Shown one piece after another: positions 5,881-42,905 of a stretch of 64,000 bases of DNA. Source of the DNA: an uncultured Actinomycetota bacterium (GTDB lineage: Bacteria > Actinomycetota > Actinomycetes > Propionibacteriales > DAIQRJ01); assembly GCA_963724495.1 (NCBI GenBank), contig CAVRUZ010000009.1, positions 1,673 through 65,672 of the forward strand, written 5' to 3'. Numbering within the stretch: the stretch's first letter is position 1; the number at the start of each line of letters is the position of its first letter. A program made the translations under genes and the position numbers. A model generated the notes under the pieces. It saw only the letters and a list, made by a program, of their open reading frames with translations. It searched no databases and had not been told where the DNA came from.

Positions 5881-5956
5881 TGGAGCCGCCTGTCGGAATC
5901 GAACCGACGACCTTCTCATTACGAGTGAGATGCTCTACCGACTGAGCTAAGGCGGC
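5881..5956 (-). tRNA. tRNA-Thr (anticodon CGU) with encoded CCA
   Basis: The reverse complement folds as a cloverleaf: acceptor GCCGCCT/AGGCGGC, D arm GCTC/GAGC, anticodon stem TCTCA/TGAGA with loop CTCGTAA, and T arm GTCGG-TTCGATT-CCGAC. Confidence 0.9.
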
Positions 5957-19271: not shown

Positions 19272-19346
19272 TCGCCCTCCCATTCAGTCCGGTCGGTGGG
19301 CGTCAGGTCGGAGCCACTCTAGGTGGGATGGCTCGCACCACCTGCG

Positions 19347-19428
19347 ACGCGCTACATGCAGCAGCAGCCGGCATACCGGGACAGGTGGCTACGAAAGGGA
19401 CGCGTGGAGCGCCCGTTTGCATGTCTTG
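19347..19428 (-). repeat. Diverged copy (F) of the CATGCA/CGGACATGTCCG intergenic repeat family
   Basis: The reverse complement reads ACATGCAAACGG...CCTGTCCCGGTATGCC...GGCTGCTGCTGCATGTAGCGCG, and its modules align to copies A and B. Confidence 0.4.
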
Positions 19429-19452
19429 TGGCAACGACGTGGCAGGCGACCG

Positions 19453-20163
19453 TCAGCTGCCGTAGTCCTTGAGCACCCAGGCGGGGATCAGGGCGGCGAC
19501 TGCGGCGAGGAAGTCCCATCTCGCGGTGATGTCCTCGGGCTGCGGGCGCTGGGACATCGCGTTGTACAGGATGCGGCCGTTGATCCGGGTGACGCCGGTC
19601 TGGCCGGCCAGCATCAGCTCCATCATCCGCGTGGGCATCAGAGCGGAGCCGTAGCGCTCGTCAGCCGCCTTGTACCGGAACCGGCGGTTGAAGTCGTCAC
19701 TCTCGAGCTGGACGTCGTCGAAGCCAAAGGCGTCAGCCACCTTGCCGCCGAAGATGCCCTCGTCCTCGATCGTCATCGACGGCAGTGCCGTGGGTAGCCA
19801 GAGCGCGCAGATCTGCCAGCGGTAAGTCGTCGTCGAGCTGGACTTCCCGCTGCTGGTGGTCTCTTTGTAGATGTAGGTGAAGCCGAGAACCGGAGCCCCG
19901 TTGAGCGTGCCACTCAGGACGTGTGTCGCGCTGCGGCTGTGGCCCCTCCCGAACGGGCTGTCGTTGCCGAACTGCTTGTACAGCTCGTCGTCGACCTTGG
20001 GTTGGTACGTCAGCCCATGGTTGGCCGCGAACGCTGTGTAGAGCGCCTGCCGCTTGCGCTCCTGCCTCGCCGAGAGGACGACTCCTGCGACCACCGCCGC
20101 GATCCCGAGCGTGAGGAAGATGACGAAGGCGTTGTCGACCAATCCGAACATCGCGCTGTCCAT
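19453..20163 (-). CDS. DUF3137-like membrane protein (the usual LemA partner)
   Basis: There is an N-terminal TM helix, the gene is adjacent to lemA, and the RBS GGAGGA lies before ATG 20163. Confidence 0.6.
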   Translation of the reverse strand: MDSAMFGLVDNAFVIFLTLGIAAVVAGVVLSARQERKRQALYTAFAANHGLTYQPKVDDELYKQFGNDSPFGRGHSRSATHVLSGTLNGAPVLGFTYIYKETTSSGKSSSTTTYRWQICALWLPTALPSMTIEDEGIFGGKVADAFGFDDVQLESDDFNRRFRYKAADERYGSALMPTRMMELMLAGQTGVTRINGRILYNAMSQRPQPEDITARWDFLAAVAALIPAWVLKDYGS

Positions 20164-25082: not shown

Positions 25083-25175
25083 GCCGGTCCACCTCCGCTC
25101 GTCGTCGAGGACGCTCGACCCGTCGCGTCAGGATAGGGACCCGCGGACCCATCGGCTTCGGCCTCGGCGTGGCGC

Positions 25176-25300
25176 CACGCATGCAGACCGGCACGGCGCG
25201 CGGCCGACATGAGCGGACATGTCCGGATCGGTCTGGGTCGGCTGCATGTATCGCGCACGCTGGTCGGCCGGCGACGGCGGCCGACCCCCGAGCGACGTCA
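25176..25300 (+). repeat. Copy A of the structured intergenic repeat (outer stem CATGCAG/CTGCATG, 28-nt core GACATGAGCGGACATGTCCGGATCGGTC, then a 9-bp GC hairpin)
   Basis: The 28-nt core is identical to copy B. The palindrome CGGACATGTCCG is at 25214-25225, and the hairpin GGTCGGCCG-N7-CGGCCGACC is at 25262-25286. Confidence 0.6.
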
Positions 25301-25363: not shown

Positions 25364-25856
25364 ATGAGCAGCAACCAGGACGAGGTCGGCTTCCTGCAGC
25401 AGGCCATCCGGCTTGCCGTCGACAACGCGGCAGCGGGGCGGTTGCCCTTCGGGGCTGTGGTCGTGCGGGCCGGGGAGGTGCTCGCGACCGGCGTCAACAC
25501 CGAGCAGCGTGACTCGGATCCGACCGCGCACGCCGAGGTCGCCGCGATCCGGAACGCCTGTGCCGCCGTTGGCGCGACCCGCCTGCCCGGAGCGACGGTG
25601 TACTCCAGTTGCGAGCCGTGCGCGGTGTGCCAGACCGTGTCCGCCGCGGCCGAGGTGACAGGGATCGTGTACGCCGCGCCGCGGGAGTTGGTACCCGACC
25701 TCGGGAGTGCCGGTTCGCGCTGAGATCGGCGCGCTGCTCGGACGCATGCAGGACGACATGCGCAGCCTCGCGCCGGATCGCGTCACGCACGTGCCGGTGG
25801 ACGGCGCGGCCGAACCGTTCGAGCGGTTCCTCGACTACCGCTCCGGTACGCCGTGA
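25364..25856 (+). pseudogene. CMP/dCMP-type zinc deaminase (guanine/tRNA-adenosine deaminase-like) with one frameshift near 25700
   Basis: The motifs HAEVAAI and SCEPCAVC are present. The C-terminal part PVRAEIGALLGRMQDDMRSLAPDRV... continues in another high-GC3 frame to TGA 25854-25856. Confidence 0.7.
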
Positions 25857-25930
25857 AGCTGGGGCTCAACATCCGCAACTTCGGCCCGAGCGCCGGGCGT
25901 GACTGACCCGTACCTCTCGTAGGCGGCGCG

Positions 25931-26060
25931 ACACATGCAAACCGCGACGCCGGACGGTCGACATGAGCGGACATGTCCGGATCGGTCCCTTCCGGCTGCA
26001 TGTTTCGCGCCGCGGGCAAGAAGCGGTCGGACGCCGACAGCCGACCCATCAGCGAGGTCG
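25931..26060 (+). repeat. Copy B of the structured intergenic repeat
   Basis: The modules are ACACATGCAAACCG, the identical 28-nt core at 25960-25987, CGGCTGCATGT at 25993-26003, and the hairpin GGTCGG-N10-CCGACC at 26025-26046. Confidence 0.6.
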
Positions 26061-26076
26061 GCCACAATGGGCGACC

Positions 26077-27252
26077 GTGACCAGTTCTCGCGCCGATCGG
26101 TTGTCCGGGCTGGGCACCACCGTCTTCGCCGAGATGTCGGCGATGGCGCTGGCGACCGAGTCGGTGAACCTGGGCCAGGGCTTTCCCGACACCGACGGTC
26201 CCGACAGCGTGCTGCAGGCCGCCAGCGACGCGATGTTCTCCGGCCGGTACAACCAGTACCCGCCCGGCATCGGGGTGCCCGAGCTTCGCCATGCGGTGAG
26301 CGAGCACCAGCAGCGCTTCTACGACCTGCGCTACGACGCCGACACCGAGGTGCTGGTCACCGCCGGTGCCACCGAGGCCATCGCGGCCGCCCTGCTGTCC
26401 CTGGTGAACCCGGGCGACGAAGTCGTTGCGCTGGAGCCCTACTACGACTCCTACGCGGCCTGCATCGCGATGGCCGGCGGCGTGCGCCGTCCGGTGACCC
26501 TTCGTGCACCGGACTTCCGACTCGACGTCGATGCCCTGTACGCCGCGGTGACACCGCGCACCAAGCTGCTGCTGATCAACAGTCCGCACAATCCCACCGG
26601 CACCGTCTTGTCAGCAGACGAATACGCCGCGATCGCACGGGTGGCGCAGGAGCACGACCTGCTGGTCATCACCGACGAGGTCTACGAGCACCTGGTCTAC
26701 GACGGCGCGCACCACATCCCGCTCGCGACCCTGCCCGGTATGCGGGACCGGACGATCTCGATCTCGAGCTCGGGCAAGACGTTTTCCCTGACGGGCTGGA
26801 AGATCGGCTGGGTCTGCTCCTCGCCCGAGCTGGTCCGCACGGTCATGATGGCCAAGCAGTTCCTCACATACGTCTCTGGTGGTCCGTTCCAGCCGGCCAT
26901 CGCGGGGGCGCTAGGCCTCGGCGACGACTACTACCGGCAGCTCACGGCTGGCATGCAGGACAAGCGCGACCGGCTGTGCGACGGCCTCGAGGCGATCGGC
27001 TTCGAGGTGTTCCGCCCGCAGGGGACCTACTTCGCCACCACCGACGTCCGCTCGCTCGGGTTCACCGATGGCGCGTCCTTCTGTGCCGAACTCCCGCACG
27101 CATGCCGGGTGGTGGCCATCCCGCACGAGGTGTTCTACGACCACACAGAAGTGGGCCGTCCGCTGGTGCGCTGGGCCTTCTGCAAGCGACACGAGACCTT
27201 GGACGAAGCCCTCGCCCGGCTCGCGTCCGGTCTTCCGCGGATGCGTCGTTGA
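26077..27252 (+). CDS. Class I/II pyridoxal-phosphate aminotransferase
   Basis: The motif NSPHNPTG and the PLP-lysine motif SSSGKTFSLTGWKIGW are present. The start is GTG 26077. Confidence 0.85.
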   Translation: MTSSRADRLSGLGTTVFAEMSAMALATESVNLGQGFPDTDGPDSVLQAASDAMFSGRYNQYPPGIGVPELRHAVSEHQQRFYDLRYDADTEVLVTAGATEAIAAALLSLVNPGDEVVALEPYYDSYAACIAMAGGVRRPVTLRAPDFRLDVDALYAAVTPRTKLLLINSPHNPTGTVLSADEYAAIARVAQEHDLLVITDEVYEHLVYDGAHHIPLATLPGMRDRTISISSSGKTFSLTGWKIGWVCSSPELVRTVMMAKQFLTYVSGGPFQPAIAGALGLGDDYYRQLTAGMQDKRDRLCDGLEAIGFEVFRPQGTYFATTDVRSLGFTDGASFCAELPHACRVVAIPHEVFYDHTEVGRPLVRWAFCKRHETLDEALARLASGLPRMRR

Positions 27253-27806: not shown

Positions 27807-29307
27807 TCAGCGCCGCGACGGCATCAGTGGCGGCTTCGAGTAGCGGAGGTGCCGTCGCTCTCTGCAGGCGGGATCGACGTCGATCGGTGGGCGTACCTGC
27901 GGCAGGCCGTCGCGCGCGATCTCGATCTCCCACTGGTCTCCGGGCGGTACATGCGGATCCGGTTCGACCAGGCGATGGTGGTACGGACACAGCAGAACTC
28001 CGTTGGCGAGGCTCGTCTCCCCGCCGTCCCACCACGGTTGGACGTGGTGCGCATCGCAGGCTGCCGGCGGCGCATCACAGCCGGGGAAGGCACAACCGCG
28101 GTCGCGTGCGTTGAGTGCCTGCCGCAGCTCCCCGCCGAAGAAGCGGCTGGCTCTGCCCACCGACAGCGGAACTCCCTTGAGATCCAGAGCGATCAACCCG
28201 ATCAGGGCGTCACACGCCAGGCGTCGTGCCGTGTTCGCAGACACCGGTCGATCGTCGCTCAGCAGTCCGTGGCCCGGCTCGCCCACGAGAACCTCTAGCG
28301 GGACAAGCAGATTCACCCGAGGACGGTCTGCGCCACGACTCGGGGCGTCACCTGAATCGGCATAGCAGTGGACGATCTCCATCAGTGCATCGGCGCGCTT
28401 CTGCGTTGCCGACCTGTCGTCGCCTGCCTCGACACCCCCGGAACCGGGCCTTGGCCGCGCCACGAGCGAGTCGACCAGGAGCCGAAGGTGTCCACCCTCC
28501 ACCGGTGGGAGCACACCCCTCAGCCCGACTCCACCCGTGGCGGGATCGTCGTAGAACCAGAGCGATCGGCCTGCATCTGCCTCCGCGTCGAGTCTGCGAA
28601 CGGCAGCTTCGGCATCTGCCTCAGCTACCTCGGGGGCCAGGAGCTCGACGACTAGGTTGGCGGCCATCCTCAGGTCGCGCGGATTGTGGCTACGCGCGAG
28701 TTCGACGAGGTCACGCTCTGCCCGGTGCACACTCTCCACCGGAAGTTCCTCAGGGAGCTTGCGCATGGTCGCCACGACCGCTTCGGCCTGCTCCATCGAC
28801 ACGGCTCCGGCGGCAAGCGCCGCACCAACAACGGTGAACTTCTCCCGGAGCAGCCGCCCGAGCCGGACGAGTTCGCGTGCTCGCTCTACCGACACCACGT
28901 TCAGGTGATGCGCCAGGAAGGTCGACGTCTGGAGTTGATGTCTGCCGATCGTGGCGCGGCGAGCTTCAGCCTCGGCTATCAGTCGCAGAGTCGACGCCTG
29001 CGCCATGGCCTGAACGGCCTGCCCAGCCTCGAGAAGTCCGAGGAGGTCGTGATCACCAAGACCGTCGAGATCGGCGTGGACGAGCGACTCGAGTGCGGAG
29101 CGTGCATCGCTGACCGCAACCCTCGCCGATCGCAATGCAGCTGCGAGCCTCGTCGTCGAACAGATCGAAGGCCTCGGACCCGAGGACCCACGTGTCCTCG
29201 AGCTCCGCCCAGAGCGCGGCATCGTCAGGTACGGACTCCGAGAGTCTCGATCCCTTCGACGAGTCGAACATGTGTTCGATTGTACTGAGTTTCCTCTGCC
29301 TGCACAA
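27807..29307 (-). pseudogene. DUF222 / HNH endonuclease (REP13E12-like family) with one frameshift near 29150
   Basis: The C-terminal HNH motif is CAFPGCDAPPAACDAHHVQPW...LLCPYHH. The N-terminus MFDSSKGSRL...DLFDDEA is in another frame. Confidence 0.75.
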
Positions 29308-29393
29308 GGGTGTCTCGGTCGATTACCCCTGCGAAGTCTGACGCTTGCAACCCCCGCGCTCGCCCTCGATCCACGATGCGCAAGGGTTGGCTG

Positions 29394-33729: not shown

Positions 33730-34809
33730 ATGCGCATGACCCGTCGCATCAGCATGCGCGAGTGGAACCGCACCCTGCTGTCGCGCCAGTTCCTGCTGGA
33801 GCGGGTCGACCTGCCGGCCATGGAGGTCCTCGACCGGTGCGTTGGGCTGCAGTCGCAGGAACCGCAGGCGGCGTTCTTCGGGCTGTGGTCGCGGATCGAG
33901 GGCTTTCGGCCGGCCGAACTCGATGCCCTGATGACCGAGCGCCAGGTCGTGCGGATGGCCTCGTTGCGCAGCACGGTGTTCCTGATGTCGACCGAGGACG
34001 CGCGGTGGGTCCGACCGACCGGCCAACCGGCTCTGGATGCGGAACTGGCCTTCCATGCCAAGGACCTCCAGGGCGCCCAGCCCGACGAGGTCGTCCAGGC
34101 CGGTCGAACTCTGCTCACCGGAACCGAGCTGTCGGTCCGCAAGCTCGCTCAACTCCTGGGCGAACGGTGGCCGGGGGAGCCACCCTCCGCCCTCTCGGCG
34201 ATCGTGCGCGCGGCGTTGCCTCTGGTGCAGGTCCCGCCTCGCGGACTGTGGCGCCGAAGTGGCGCGACCACCTACCGGCACCTGGACGAGTGGGCACCCG
34301 GCGTGCCTGCGTTCTCCGGCGACGGTGCCCGGCAGCAGCTGATCCGCCTCTATCTCAGGGGATTCGGTCCGTCGACGGTCAACGGCATCCAGACCTGGGC
34401 ACGCCTGACCAAGCTGACCGGACTGGTCGACGCGATGGTCAAGAGCGGCGAGGTCGTCCCGATCGAAGGACCAGAAGGCGAGAAGCTGTTCGACCTGGCC
34501 GGTCTGGAGATCGTCGATGGCGACACGCCAGCGCCGGTTCGGCTCCTCGCACCGTTCGACAATGTCGTAGTGGCGCAGGCCGACCGTCGGCGCGTCGTCG
34601 ACCAGGACGTGTTTCCCGGACTGGTCACGGCCAACGGCCAGTCCCCGGGCTTCGTGCTGGTCGACGGGCGAGTCGTCGGTGCCTGGAAGCCGCCCGGCCT
34701 CACCCGCCGGACCGATGTCGAGCTCGAGTACCTCGCGCCCGTCACTGCCCGCAACCGCAAGAAGGTGGCCGCGGAAGTCGACCGGCTCACCGCCTTCTGC
34801 AAGGCCTAG
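33730..34809 (+). CDS. Winged-helix DNA-binding protein, YcaQ/AlkZ (DUF1006) family
   Basis: The N-terminal pattern NRTLLSRQFLLER...VGLQSQEPQAAFFGLWSR is typical of that family. The length is 359 aa. Confidence 0.65.
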   Translation: MRMTRRISMREWNRTLLSRQFLLERVDLPAMEVLDRCVGLQSQEPQAAFFGLWSRIEGFRPAELDALMTERQVVRMASLRSTVFLMSTEDARWVRPTGQPALDAELAFHAKDLQGAQPDEVVQAGRTLLTGTELSVRKLAQLLGERWPGEPPSALSAIVRAALPLVQVPPRGLWRRSGATTYRHLDEWAPGVPAFSGDGARQQLIRLYLRGFGPSTVNGIQTWARLTKLTGLVDAMVKSGEVVPIEGPEGEKLFDLAGLEIVDGDTPAPVRLLAPFDNVVVAQADRRRVVDQDVFPGLVTANGQSPGFVLVDGRVVGAWKPPGLTRRTDVELEYLAPVTARNRKKVAAEVDRLTAFCKA

Positions 34810-39336: not shown

Positions 39337-39406
39337 GATGCCCCCTCCCGTTCCGTGTGGGTCATTCTGGCGTTCGGTCGTGCTCGTTCACAACTGAAAC
39401 TGCGCA

Positions 39407-39444
39407 GGTGATGAGGATCAGGCACTCGCCTGATCCTCACCACC
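39407..39444. other. 17-bp intercistronic stem-loop between grpE and dnaJ
   Basis: The structure is GGTGATGAGGATCAGGC, loop ACTC, GCCTGATCCTCACCACC, with one mismatch. Confidence 0.45.
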
Positions 39445-40128
39445 TGCCTTGGCGTCGTTGCCGGCAGCCTGACCGTCGACGGCCGCTTCGTCCGCGGCTG
39501 TCTCGTCGATGCACCGGCTCCGCGCCACCGTGCTCGGGCGCGGTGACCGCCACCCTTGCCGGGCGGAGGATCCGGTCGCCCAGGCGGTAGCCGGGCTGCA
39601 GGATGGCCGTGGCCGTCGGCTCCTCGACGTCGCCCGACTGCGCGAACATCAGGGCCTCGTGGTGGGTGGGGTCGAAAGGCTCGCCCACCTCGCCGAAGCT
39701 GGTGACGCCCATCCGCTCCAGTGCCCGGGTCAGCGAGTCCGCCACCGCCTTGAAGCCGCCGGTGAGCTCACCGTGCTGCTCTGCCCTGGCGATGTCGTCG
39801 AGCACCGGAAGCAACTCGGTGGCTGCCTTGACCGTGCCGGCCTGTGCGGATGTCGCCCGGTCGCGATCGACCCGCCTGCGGTAGTTCACGTACTCCGCTT
39901 GCAGGCGTTGCAGGTCGGCCGTGCGTTCGTCGGCCAGCTTCTGCAGCCGATCGATCTCCTCCGACGCAAGCGCGTCGGCTGAGGGCTCGTCTGCTGCCGG
40001 CGCGGCCGGCCCGGCGGATTTCGCCGCCGGGCCGACTCCCGGACGTGCCTGACCGGTCACCGGGTCGATACGCCGGCGGTCACGGACCACGGGGCCGTCG
40101 AACTCTTCCTCGGTGTTGCCGGTCTCAC

Positions 40129-40132
<4 letters not shown>
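39437..40132 (-). CDS. grpE: Nucleotide exchange factor GrpE; the C-terminal tail is probably frameshifted near 39510, with the alternative stop at 39418
   Basis: The GrpE core is [16 protein letters not shown]...HEALM. The last 30 or so codons have low GC3 and are Arg-rich. The +1 frame instead gives an acidic, high-GC3 tail [30 protein letters not shown]. Confidence 0.85.
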
Positions 40133-42006
<1,874 letters not shown>

Positions 42007-42153
42007 GTGTGTTTCCCTCCATCAGGCCGGGACGGACCCGGCCGGTTTGCCTGAGTGGGCCGGTCTTGCCGGCCGCTTGCCCCGGCACGCAGCCGGGCGA
42101 GTGGTCATCTTGGCCAGGCGAGCCACCGTTCGGCAACTAACCTGCGTCCAGTT

Positions 42154-42172
42154 GGCTCAACTTTACTGAGCC
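42154..42172. promoter_or_regulatory. Perfect inverted repeat GGCTCA-N7-TGAGCC overlapping a putative dnaK promoter (TTGCGG-N18-TAAAGT on the minus strand); candidate HspR operator
   Basis: The site lies about 150 nt upstream of the dnaK ATG. The half-sites resemble the TGAG/CTCA core of HAIR, but the arrangement is not the canonical CTTGAGT-N7-ACTCAAG. Confidence 0.35.
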
Positions 42173-42261
42173 GTGCAAGATTCCCGCAAGCCTGCGATGT
42201 GATCCAGGTCACTTCTTGCGGCTCGGCCGTCCTGAGTGCAGGCAAGCACCCTCGGGTCCGG

Positions 42262-42350
42262 CGCGCCTCAAACATGCAGTCGGATGCGACCAGTCCGGAC
42301 ATATCCGCTCTTGTGGGCGCTCAGGACGCCTCGATTGCATGTGTGAGGTC
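42262..42350 (-). repeat. Copy C of the structured intergenic repeat (reverse orientation)
   Basis: The reverse complement reads ACACATGCAATCGA...GAGCGGATATGTCCGGACTGGTC...CGACTGCATGTTT. Confidence 0.55.
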
Positions 42351-42401
42351 GGCGGCTGCACGTTTCAGGCTGCCGCGGCGGCCTCGTCCTAGCCTGGCCG
42401 C

Positions 42402-42905
42402 GTGTCCGACCAGCCCGCGATTGTCGTCGTCCCGATGACCGACGAGCATGCCGAACGGTCCTGTCGATCTACCGGCAGGGCATCGCCGAGGGCAACGCCA
42501 CGTTCGAGACCGACGTGCCGTCGTGGCCGGCCTTCCGGGCGGCGAGGCTCGCCGACCACTGCTTCGTGGCCGCCGCTGATGGCCGGGTGATCGGCTGGGT
42601 CGCCGCCTCGCCCGTCTCCAGCCGGCCCGCCTACCGCGGCGTGGTCGAGCACTCGGTGTACGTGGACAACGAGGCCCGCGGCCGGGGAGTCGGTGCGCTC
42701 CTGCTGCGGCGTCTCATCGCCTCGACCGAGGCGGCCGGGATCTGGACCATCCAGTCGGCACTGTTCCCGGAGAACACAGCCAGCCTCGCCCTGCACCGAG
42801 CGGCTCGGGTTCCGCGTGGTCGGTACCCGCGAGCGCATCGCCCGACACCACGGCCGCTGGCGGGACACCGTCCTCGTCGAGCGTCGCTCGCCCCTCGTCG
42901 ACTGA
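42402..42905 (+). pseudogene. GNAT N-acetyltransferase (phosphinothricin-acetyltransferase-like) with two frameshifts (about 42455 and about 42810)
   Basis: The segments MSDQPAIVVVPMTDEHAE, IYRQGIAEGNATFETDVPSW...RGRGVGALLLRRL...LALHRAA and GFRVVGTRERIARHHGRWRDTVLVER lie in alternating frames. Confidence 0.75.

Follow-up and report, generated by a model that had tools for sequence, protein, structure and literature searches.

REPINs are doublets of REP sequences that form a hairpin, and REP sequences are mobilised by RAYT transposases (Bertels & Rainey; PMC3337134, PMC3116915). We analysed a repeat in a 64-kb stretch of high-GC actinobacterial DNA (the whole of this stretch is hereafter called the window) that shares several traits with REPINs: it is an extragenic quasi-palindrome of about 85–90 nt with inverted, conserved ends and a less conserved interior, and it is inherited vertically at orthologous sites within one lineage, in copies of different ages, some of which are decaying. 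It departs from REPINs in that its best-conserved block is central rather than terminal and its variable interior preserves no hairpin pairing. Only 4–5 copies are present in 64 kb, no RAYT is found among the called genes around them, the paralogues resemble local segmental duplicates, and many copies sit in divergent promoter regions.

Bacterial MITEs and intergenic palindromes include Correia/NEMIS in Neisseria, ERIC/IRU in enterobacteria, RUP and BOX. Elements of the MITE/Correia type resemble the repeat in being short, non-coding and intergenic, with terminal inverted repeats and a location near promoters, and MITE-type repeats, like this one, could carry protein-binding sites or alter the expression of their neighbours. 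Terminal inverted repeats, as expected of a MITE, are present in all copies, but neither the target-site duplications nor the sharp ends of homology that would also be expected were found at them, and the flanks are inverted (GCGCGA/TCGCGC, CCTCA/TGAGG), not direct. The repeat differs from MITEs further in having no known parent IS, in its rigid 71-nt length and in the purifying selection on its blocks at orthologous loci.

Composite operators for dimeric or oligomeric regulators in actinobacteria (such as HspR/HAIR at dnaK or CRP-type GTGA-N6-TCAC sites) have in common with the repeat nested dyads at a fixed spacing, sequence that is conserved without covariation, and a promoter-proximal position. 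The repeat is much longer than usual operators, however, and appears to have arisen by repeat duplication; HAIR-like and CRP-like sites do occur near one of its copies, copy C, but are separate from it and lie downstream, and no HspR operator HAIR (CTTGAGT-N7-ACTCAAG) is present inside copy C (42266–42348). To our knowledge, none of the ArgR, DasR, DosR, GlnR, ArpA, MerR, LexA, DnaA-box, parS or dif consensus sequences fits the repeat. Integron attC sites are likewise imperfect palindromes (57–141 nt), whose 7-bp inverted ends are conserved and whose centre varies, and copies A and B of the repeat flank a single gene in direct orientation. Yet the attC core sites RYYYAAC/GTTRRRY are absent from the repeat, which ends in ACATGCA/TGCATGT, and the flanked genes, which have promoters of their own, are conserved housekeeping genes with no integrase nearby.

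We describe the repeat as a small, lineage-restricted family of ~85-bp quasi-palindromic, intergenic elements at five loci (A–E). In our leading explanation, to which we give close to an even chance, it would be a REPIN/MITE-like dispersed repeat whose blocks are recognition sites of a sequence-specific protein that binds duplex DNA.

Copies in the window and in related genomes

A repeat search of the window aligned copies A and B at 83% over 86 nt and found an inverted match of 75 nt, 75% complementary, between B (25931–26005) and 42270–42344. An HMM built from orthologues of A and B only matched 42345–42265 on the minus strand with 40.6 bits (E=1.5e-11). Because the same HMM reached only 6 bits on the plus strand at this site, the orientation of copy C is well defined. 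The window contains the 17-mer GAGCGGAYATGTCCGGA exactly three times, and a covariance model run with filters off added one copy there, E, whose arms are intact and 71 nt apart and whose core has decayed. The tally for the window is four copies and one remnant in 64 kb, a count that draws on these 64 kb and on short contigs only:

19346–19430, minus strand: copy E, between the stop codon at 19453 and the LemA-family gene; covariance model, 19.7 bits, E=0.005
25171–25256, plus strand: copy A, between the divergent membrane-protein gene and the cytidine/dCMP-type deaminase gene
25925–26010, plus strand: copy B, 67 nt upstream of the start of the dapC-like aminotransferase gene (GTG at 26077)
42266–42348, minus strand: copy C, matched by the A/B-only HMM; includes the CCTCA/TGAGG flank pairing specific to this genome
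42272–42278, minus strand: 3' arm of copy C, TGCATGT; arm-to-arm distance 71 nt, as in A, B and E
42289–42303, minus strand: right half of the core of copy C, TATGTCCGGACTGGT, the best-conserved block of the family
42296–42307: palindrome of copy C, CGGATATGTCCG
42336–42342, minus strand: 5' arm of copy C, ACATGCA on its own strand, an invariant block of the alignment
42354–42370, plus strand: remnant of copy D, GGCTGCACGTTTCAGGC, which the alignment equates with the 3' arm of the intact, GNAT-facing D of L135, L136 and L002

The original prediction had read 42262–42350 as a third, inverted copy of the A/B repeat with one change in its palindrome. The reverse complement has the letters quoted there, the inverted copy was recovered by both the A/B-only HMM and the repeat search, and the one-change variant is present at the position given above. 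The outer stem of copy C reaches beyond the earlier description, with CCTCA (42344–42348) pairing with TGAGG (42266–42270) where A and B have GCGCGA...TCGCGC. Copy C is a bona fide inverted member of the A/B family, and the family is non-random and partly under purifying selection.

Two further covariance-model matches, at 34561–34657 and 39402–39449, are not family members. The second is a near-perfect 17-bp hairpin (GGTGGTGAGGATCAGGC GAGT GCCTGATCCTCATCACC) at the grpE-dnaJ junction inside the dnaK operon, and may be an internal attenuator or a processing site. Isolated core sites elsewhere in the window, counted with up to three mismatches (<=3), show no enrichment (19 vs 16.8 expected).

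Outside the window, the family turned up only in metagenomic sequences closely related to this uncultured Propionibacteriales-like organism. Comparison of the whole window with Rfam at the gathering threshold returned a single match, a tRNA gene (5884–5956, minus strand), and no family for the repeat; in E-value mode, the surroundings of C and of A and B gave nothing better than E>2, far under gathering scores. A scan of GTDB with one genome per species (185,579 species) gave 0 matches to the exact 23-mer and six to a gapped arm-core-arm pattern, all of which were chance matches in unrelated taxa and mostly coding. The best matches in plasmid and phage collections were at chance level (E about 0.8–0.9), and the one match in viral contigs was by chance. 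The 17-mer core was too unspecific for a metagenome scan, with one true copy (in L077) among the 120 matches listed, and a literature search for the core sequence returned p53 papers only. The nearest cultured DnaK is that of Kribbella (81%), and the nearest cultured aminotransferases are those of Tenggerimyces and Actinopolymorpha (about 75%).

Among the metagenomic relatives, L077 and L131 carry orthologues of A and B, and L133, L134 and L135 carry orthologues of C. L131 is otherwise collinear with the window (91–93% identical) and lacks about 1.5 kb corresponding to 27818–29368, an insertion/deletion polymorphism. Copy D is intact in L135 (489–573, plus strand), on the opposite strand to C and facing the GNAT gene, and is cut by the contig end in L136 (1–24). 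In L002 (3997–4085, minus strand) a weak, diverged copy with a 10-nt insertion lies on the D strand, and C is absent. In the window, L133 and L134, only the 3' arm of D is left. The farther relatives L001 (fourfold-site divergence about 50%), L132 and L003 (36%) have no recognisable copies; L132 is a dapC-like locus, and its protein is 78% identical.

Where C or D would be, L003 (1721–1786) has an unrelated 66-nt palindrome, CTGGAAAG...CTTTCCAG with GTTCGGCGGTCCGAAC inside it, 14 nt upstream of the GNAT -10. The C/D intergenic site seems to attract palindromic elements.

Neighbouring genes and predicted promoters

Copy C lies between dnaK (40129–42006, minus strand) and a GNAT gene that starts at 42402 (plus strand). 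Promoters were assigned by eye from sequence; a scan of 41950–42480 for sigma-70 promoters and terminators found none. The features around copy C are:

42154–42172, minus strand: HAIR-like inverted repeat GGCTCAGTAAAGTTGAGCC (putative assignment), overlapping the dnaK -10; conserved in all relatives and outside the repeat
42160–42165: dnaK -10-like hexamer, TAAAGT
42184–42189: dnaK -35-like hexamer, TTGCGG
42199–42212: CRP-like palindrome GTGA-N6-TCAC, between C and the dnaK promoter; conserved in all relatives and outside the repeat
42390–42395, plus strand: TAGCCT, putative -10 of a leaderless GNAT gene (GTG at 42402), conserved in all orthologous loci; predicted promoter

The distance of 90–190 nt claimed earlier between the element and the dnaK promoter agrees roughly with these positions, with the -35-like hexamer 76 nt and the -10-like hexamer about 100 nt downstream of the 3' end of copy C (42266). 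Copy C does point toward dnaK, as had been claimed, though probably only incidentally, because C is likely to have come from D by inverted duplication. A connection with the GNAT promoter region is more probable for this dnaK-side element than a role in heat-shock control.

TAGCCT-N6-GTG is present at all GNAT loci, and the gene is predicted to be leaderless, as is the dapC-like gene with its CACAAT-N7-GTG. A conserved TAGCGT island precedes the deaminase gene as its predicted promoter, and the predicted -10-like hexamers are TATCCT at the membrane-protein gene and TAGAGT at the LemA-family gene. Every copy has one end 27–59 nt from the predicted -10-like hexamer of a neighbouring gene, and the distances from the arm to the nearest -10 (27, 32, 43, 47, 56 and 59 nt) show no helical phase. 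Copies A, C and D each occupy a divergent promoter region, and none of the three is preceded by a TANNNT. As these copies sit upstream of their neighbours' predicted promoters and have no -10 upstream of themselves, the element is not expected to be transcribed at these loci; B and E could share a transcript with the upstream gene. At five of five loci the repeat points toward the downstream gene, for which p is only about 0.06.

Several genes beside the copies have features of their own. Compared with intact L133, L134 and L002, the GNAT gene (42402–42905) has two frame changes, one near 42455 and one between about 42590 and 42690, and the deaminase gene (25365–25856) has one near 25720 compared with intact L131 and L077; either long-read assembly has introduced indel errors or the genes became pseudogenes recently. 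A 17-codon ORF at 25853–25906 (VKLGLNIRNFGPSAGRD, followed by a stop) overlaps the deaminase stop (GTGA), ends just before copy B and is conserved in L077. We take it to resemble a truncated LLM/F420-type oxidoreductase gene of which only the N-terminal end is left, which suggests that a deletion took place where copy B lies.

Block conservation, history of the copies and protein recognition

The family data comprise 12 copies from four or five genomes, and the alignment holds 11 sequences. Three blocks are common to the 12 copies, RCATGCA, CATGTCCGGAyysGT and TGCATGT, which are the arm and core blocks of the repeat (core block CATGTCCGGA). All copies have terminal inverted repeats of 7–10 bp (GAmACATGCA ... 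TGCATGTkTC), and there is a nested dyad symmetry, with CGGAcATGTCCG placed within GAC-N22-GTC. The distance from arm to arm is exactly 71 nt in 10 of the 12 copies, E included, and this length is kept despite variable segments that are about 50% diverged and neighbouring intergenic DNA that is rich in indels. Rates of change, as parsimony changes per site within orthologue groups, are as follows:

Outermost flank columns: 0.48–0.65 changes/site
5' arm: 0.10 changes/site
20-nt 5' variable segment: 0.55 changes/site
Left core half: 0.25 changes/site
Right core half: 0.09 changes/site
10-nt 3' variable segment: 0.43 changes/site
3' arm: 0.10 changes/site

The blocks thus change 4–5 times more slowly than the intervening segments (blocks vs rest, Fisher p=1e-11). 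Fourfold-degenerate sites are 20% diverged between the window and L131 and 12–25% among the four closest genomes, so that the variable segments of the repeat drift roughly neutrally. The blocks of A and B together show 6 differences in 164 sites (3.7%, p=9e-10 against about 20% at fourfold sites), which indicates that they are under purifying selection. Copy C is less constrained, its whole blocks being 10–15% divergent and close to neutral, with only 5 of 87 sites differing in its arms and right core half.

In the JGI metagenome Ga0190275 (L077, L134), the 5' arms of B and C have both changed from A to G at alignment columns 17 and 24 and have thereby become identical to the arm of A, GCATGCAG. 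This parallel change suggests either concerted evolution or co-evolution with a trans-acting factor.

Recognition of the repeat as duplex DNA by a protein would fit the conservation at the level of sequence, the nested dyads, the fixed spacing and the absence of covariation described below. The candidate binder might be a regulator, an architectural protein or an enzyme that once mobilised the repeat, and the copies may modulate the neighbouring predicted promoters. Some findings count against a DNA-binding protein: no known operator consensus matches the repeat, and the gene-ward orientation at five of five loci would be natural for a transcribed element. An 85-bp site of three blocks is also unusual for a bacterial transcription factor. 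The blocks of C as a whole are close to neutral, one lineage has lost D, the core of E is degenerate, and C/D is absent or diverged in L002 and L003, so any host function is dispensable at some loci.

A bolder version is possible but doubtful, namely that the repeat is a DNA module maintained by the host, with three blocks at a rigid 71-nt spacing, copied in front of the LemA, deaminase, dapC and GNAT/dnaK promoters and serving as an operator for a global regulator or architectural protein not yet described, or else as a domesticated REPIN-like system. If a host protein does bind the blocks, the family would represent a regulatory or architectural site spread by palindromic-repeat duplication in a poorly known, uncultured actinobacterial lineage, and a selection-maintained REP-like element outside Proteobacteria. 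REPIN-like domestication, if true, would have taken place in Actinobacteria, a phylum that goes unmentioned in the REPIN/RAYT papers retrieved.

The relationships among paralogues bear on how the copies arose. Beyond the 3' arm, A and B stay similar for another 45 nt or so. C and D have in common a GGACTsGT variant and a TTT(C/G)AGG flank, with a weaker likeness over the next 30 nt, as far as the GNAT -10 region, and the outgroup L002 has D and lacks C. The simplest history appears to be one in which D came first, in front of GNAT; an inverted local duplication of D would then have produced C, and the common ancestor of the window, L133 and L134 would have lost about 165 nt, including most of D. 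Copy C appears to be young and derived from D by inverted duplication, in which case its orientation toward dnaK carries no functional message. Local duplication probably spread the family as a whole, giving a direct pair (A and B) and an inverted one (C and D).

The rival that survives best, although we consider it unlikely, is a purely selfish or neutral REPIN/MITE-type element that is moved as an ssDNA hairpin by a RAYT-, IS200/IS605-like or other transposase and has no host function; the conserved blocks would then be recognition sites of the transposase. Such an element would account for a REPIN-sized quasi-palindrome with conserved ends and a variable interior, for its confinement to one narrow lineage and for its variable presence (D deleted, C absent in L002, E decayed), and it sits well with the unrelated 66-nt palindrome at the same spot in L003 and with the arms of B and C in Ga0190275 that changed to match A, as in co-evolution with a trans-acting factor. 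A selfish copy that stays in place would be expected to drift, however, and the blocks of the A/B orthologues are 3.7% divergent against about 20% for neutral sites. The similarity of paralogues past the arms points to segmental duplication rather than excision and insertion, and there are no target-site duplications. The centre is best conserved, and not the ends alone, and the spacer has kept no hairpin pairing. Of the five loci, three are in divergent promoter regions; no transposase domain is annotated by Pfam among called genes near the copies; and the word Actinobacteria is absent from the REPIN/RAYT papers found in our literature search.

Base pairing and coding potential

Our preferred reading, recognition as duplex DNA, also has to be weighed against readings in which the repeat acts as RNA. 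The original prediction had taken a change at the base of the outer stem, from CCG...CGG in A and B to TCG...CGA in C, as compensatory. The difference is present, though only after a register shift of 1 nt (two bases separate CATGCA from CCG in A and B, and one base in C); the compensatory inference fails for want of covariation, the very outcome that the original prediction had named as refuting it. In the covariation check on the 11 aligned copies, the paired change as a conserved RNA stem did not rise above the level of shuffles: 5 pairs had changed on both sides against 4.9 in shuffles (11 copies, two explicit structures), the covariation score of 0.142 compares with 0.125±0.014 and was reached by 52 of 500 shuffles, and the RNAalifold covariation term was about 0. 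Among the orthologues of C, the highlighted pair is T-A beside a broken neighbour pair in L133, T.G in L134 and C.C in L135, and the CCTCA/TGAGG extension, present in the window and L133 only, is missing from L134, L135 and D.

Other properties of the alignment bear on folding as well. Mismatches of the G.U type are about as frequent as those of the A.C type (13 vs 15), so the mark of single-strand folding is seen on neither strand. The left half of the palindrome varies (TGCAT, CGCAC, CTGAC) and the right half never mutates, which is the opposite of what is expected for a hairpin under selection. The terminal arms (7–10 bp) pair in 11 of 12 copies, but interior pairing is not conserved: MFE folds inside the terminal stem differ among copies, with z from +1.0 to -3.2 and a mean of about -1.3. 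A candidate inner helix, S2/S3 (GACATG/CATGTC), was rejected, its U-A pair being broken in 8 of the 11 copies. These results show that base pairing in the repeat is not maintained by compensatory change, and a lone apparent compensatory change between paralogous palindromic repeats is no evidence for RNA structure.

A structured RNA, that is, a cis-regulatory leader or small RNA with a long hairpin in which compensatory changes preserve the stem, is accordingly named here as a poor prospect, less probable than a selfish element. It could draw on the 7–8-bp terminal stem of 11 of the 12 copies, on the orientation of five of five loci with the downstream gene, on folds that in some copies are better than shuffles (z down to -3.2), and on the one T-A for C-G swap together with CCTCA/TGAGG in copy C of the window and L133. 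Set against these are the lack of any Rfam match, covariation equal to that of shuffles, G.U pairs no commoner than A.C, and a mean fold z of only about -1.3. The stems are conserved as sequence, with pairs inside the arms broken in many copies, and one half of the palindrome mutates freely while the other is fixed. The positions of the copies are awkward for a transcript, too: the dnaK -35 is about 76 nt downstream of C, the -10 of leaderless GNAT is downstream of D, and A is amid divergent -10 boxes; no copy is preceded by a -10-like hexamer, and there is no terminator.

A small peptide (MQ..ERTCPD..AAC) read from the ATG inside the 5' arm can safely be dismissed: although every 5' arm has this ATG, the peptides of A, B and C in the window are alike and that of A is in frame with the deaminase gene, there is neither a ribosome-binding site nor a leaderless -10, differences between orthologues are mostly non-synonymous, and the small-ORF reading is refuted by early stops in two orthologues of C (after 9 codons in L133 and after 17 in L135) and by frame changes, the core being read in another frame in D.
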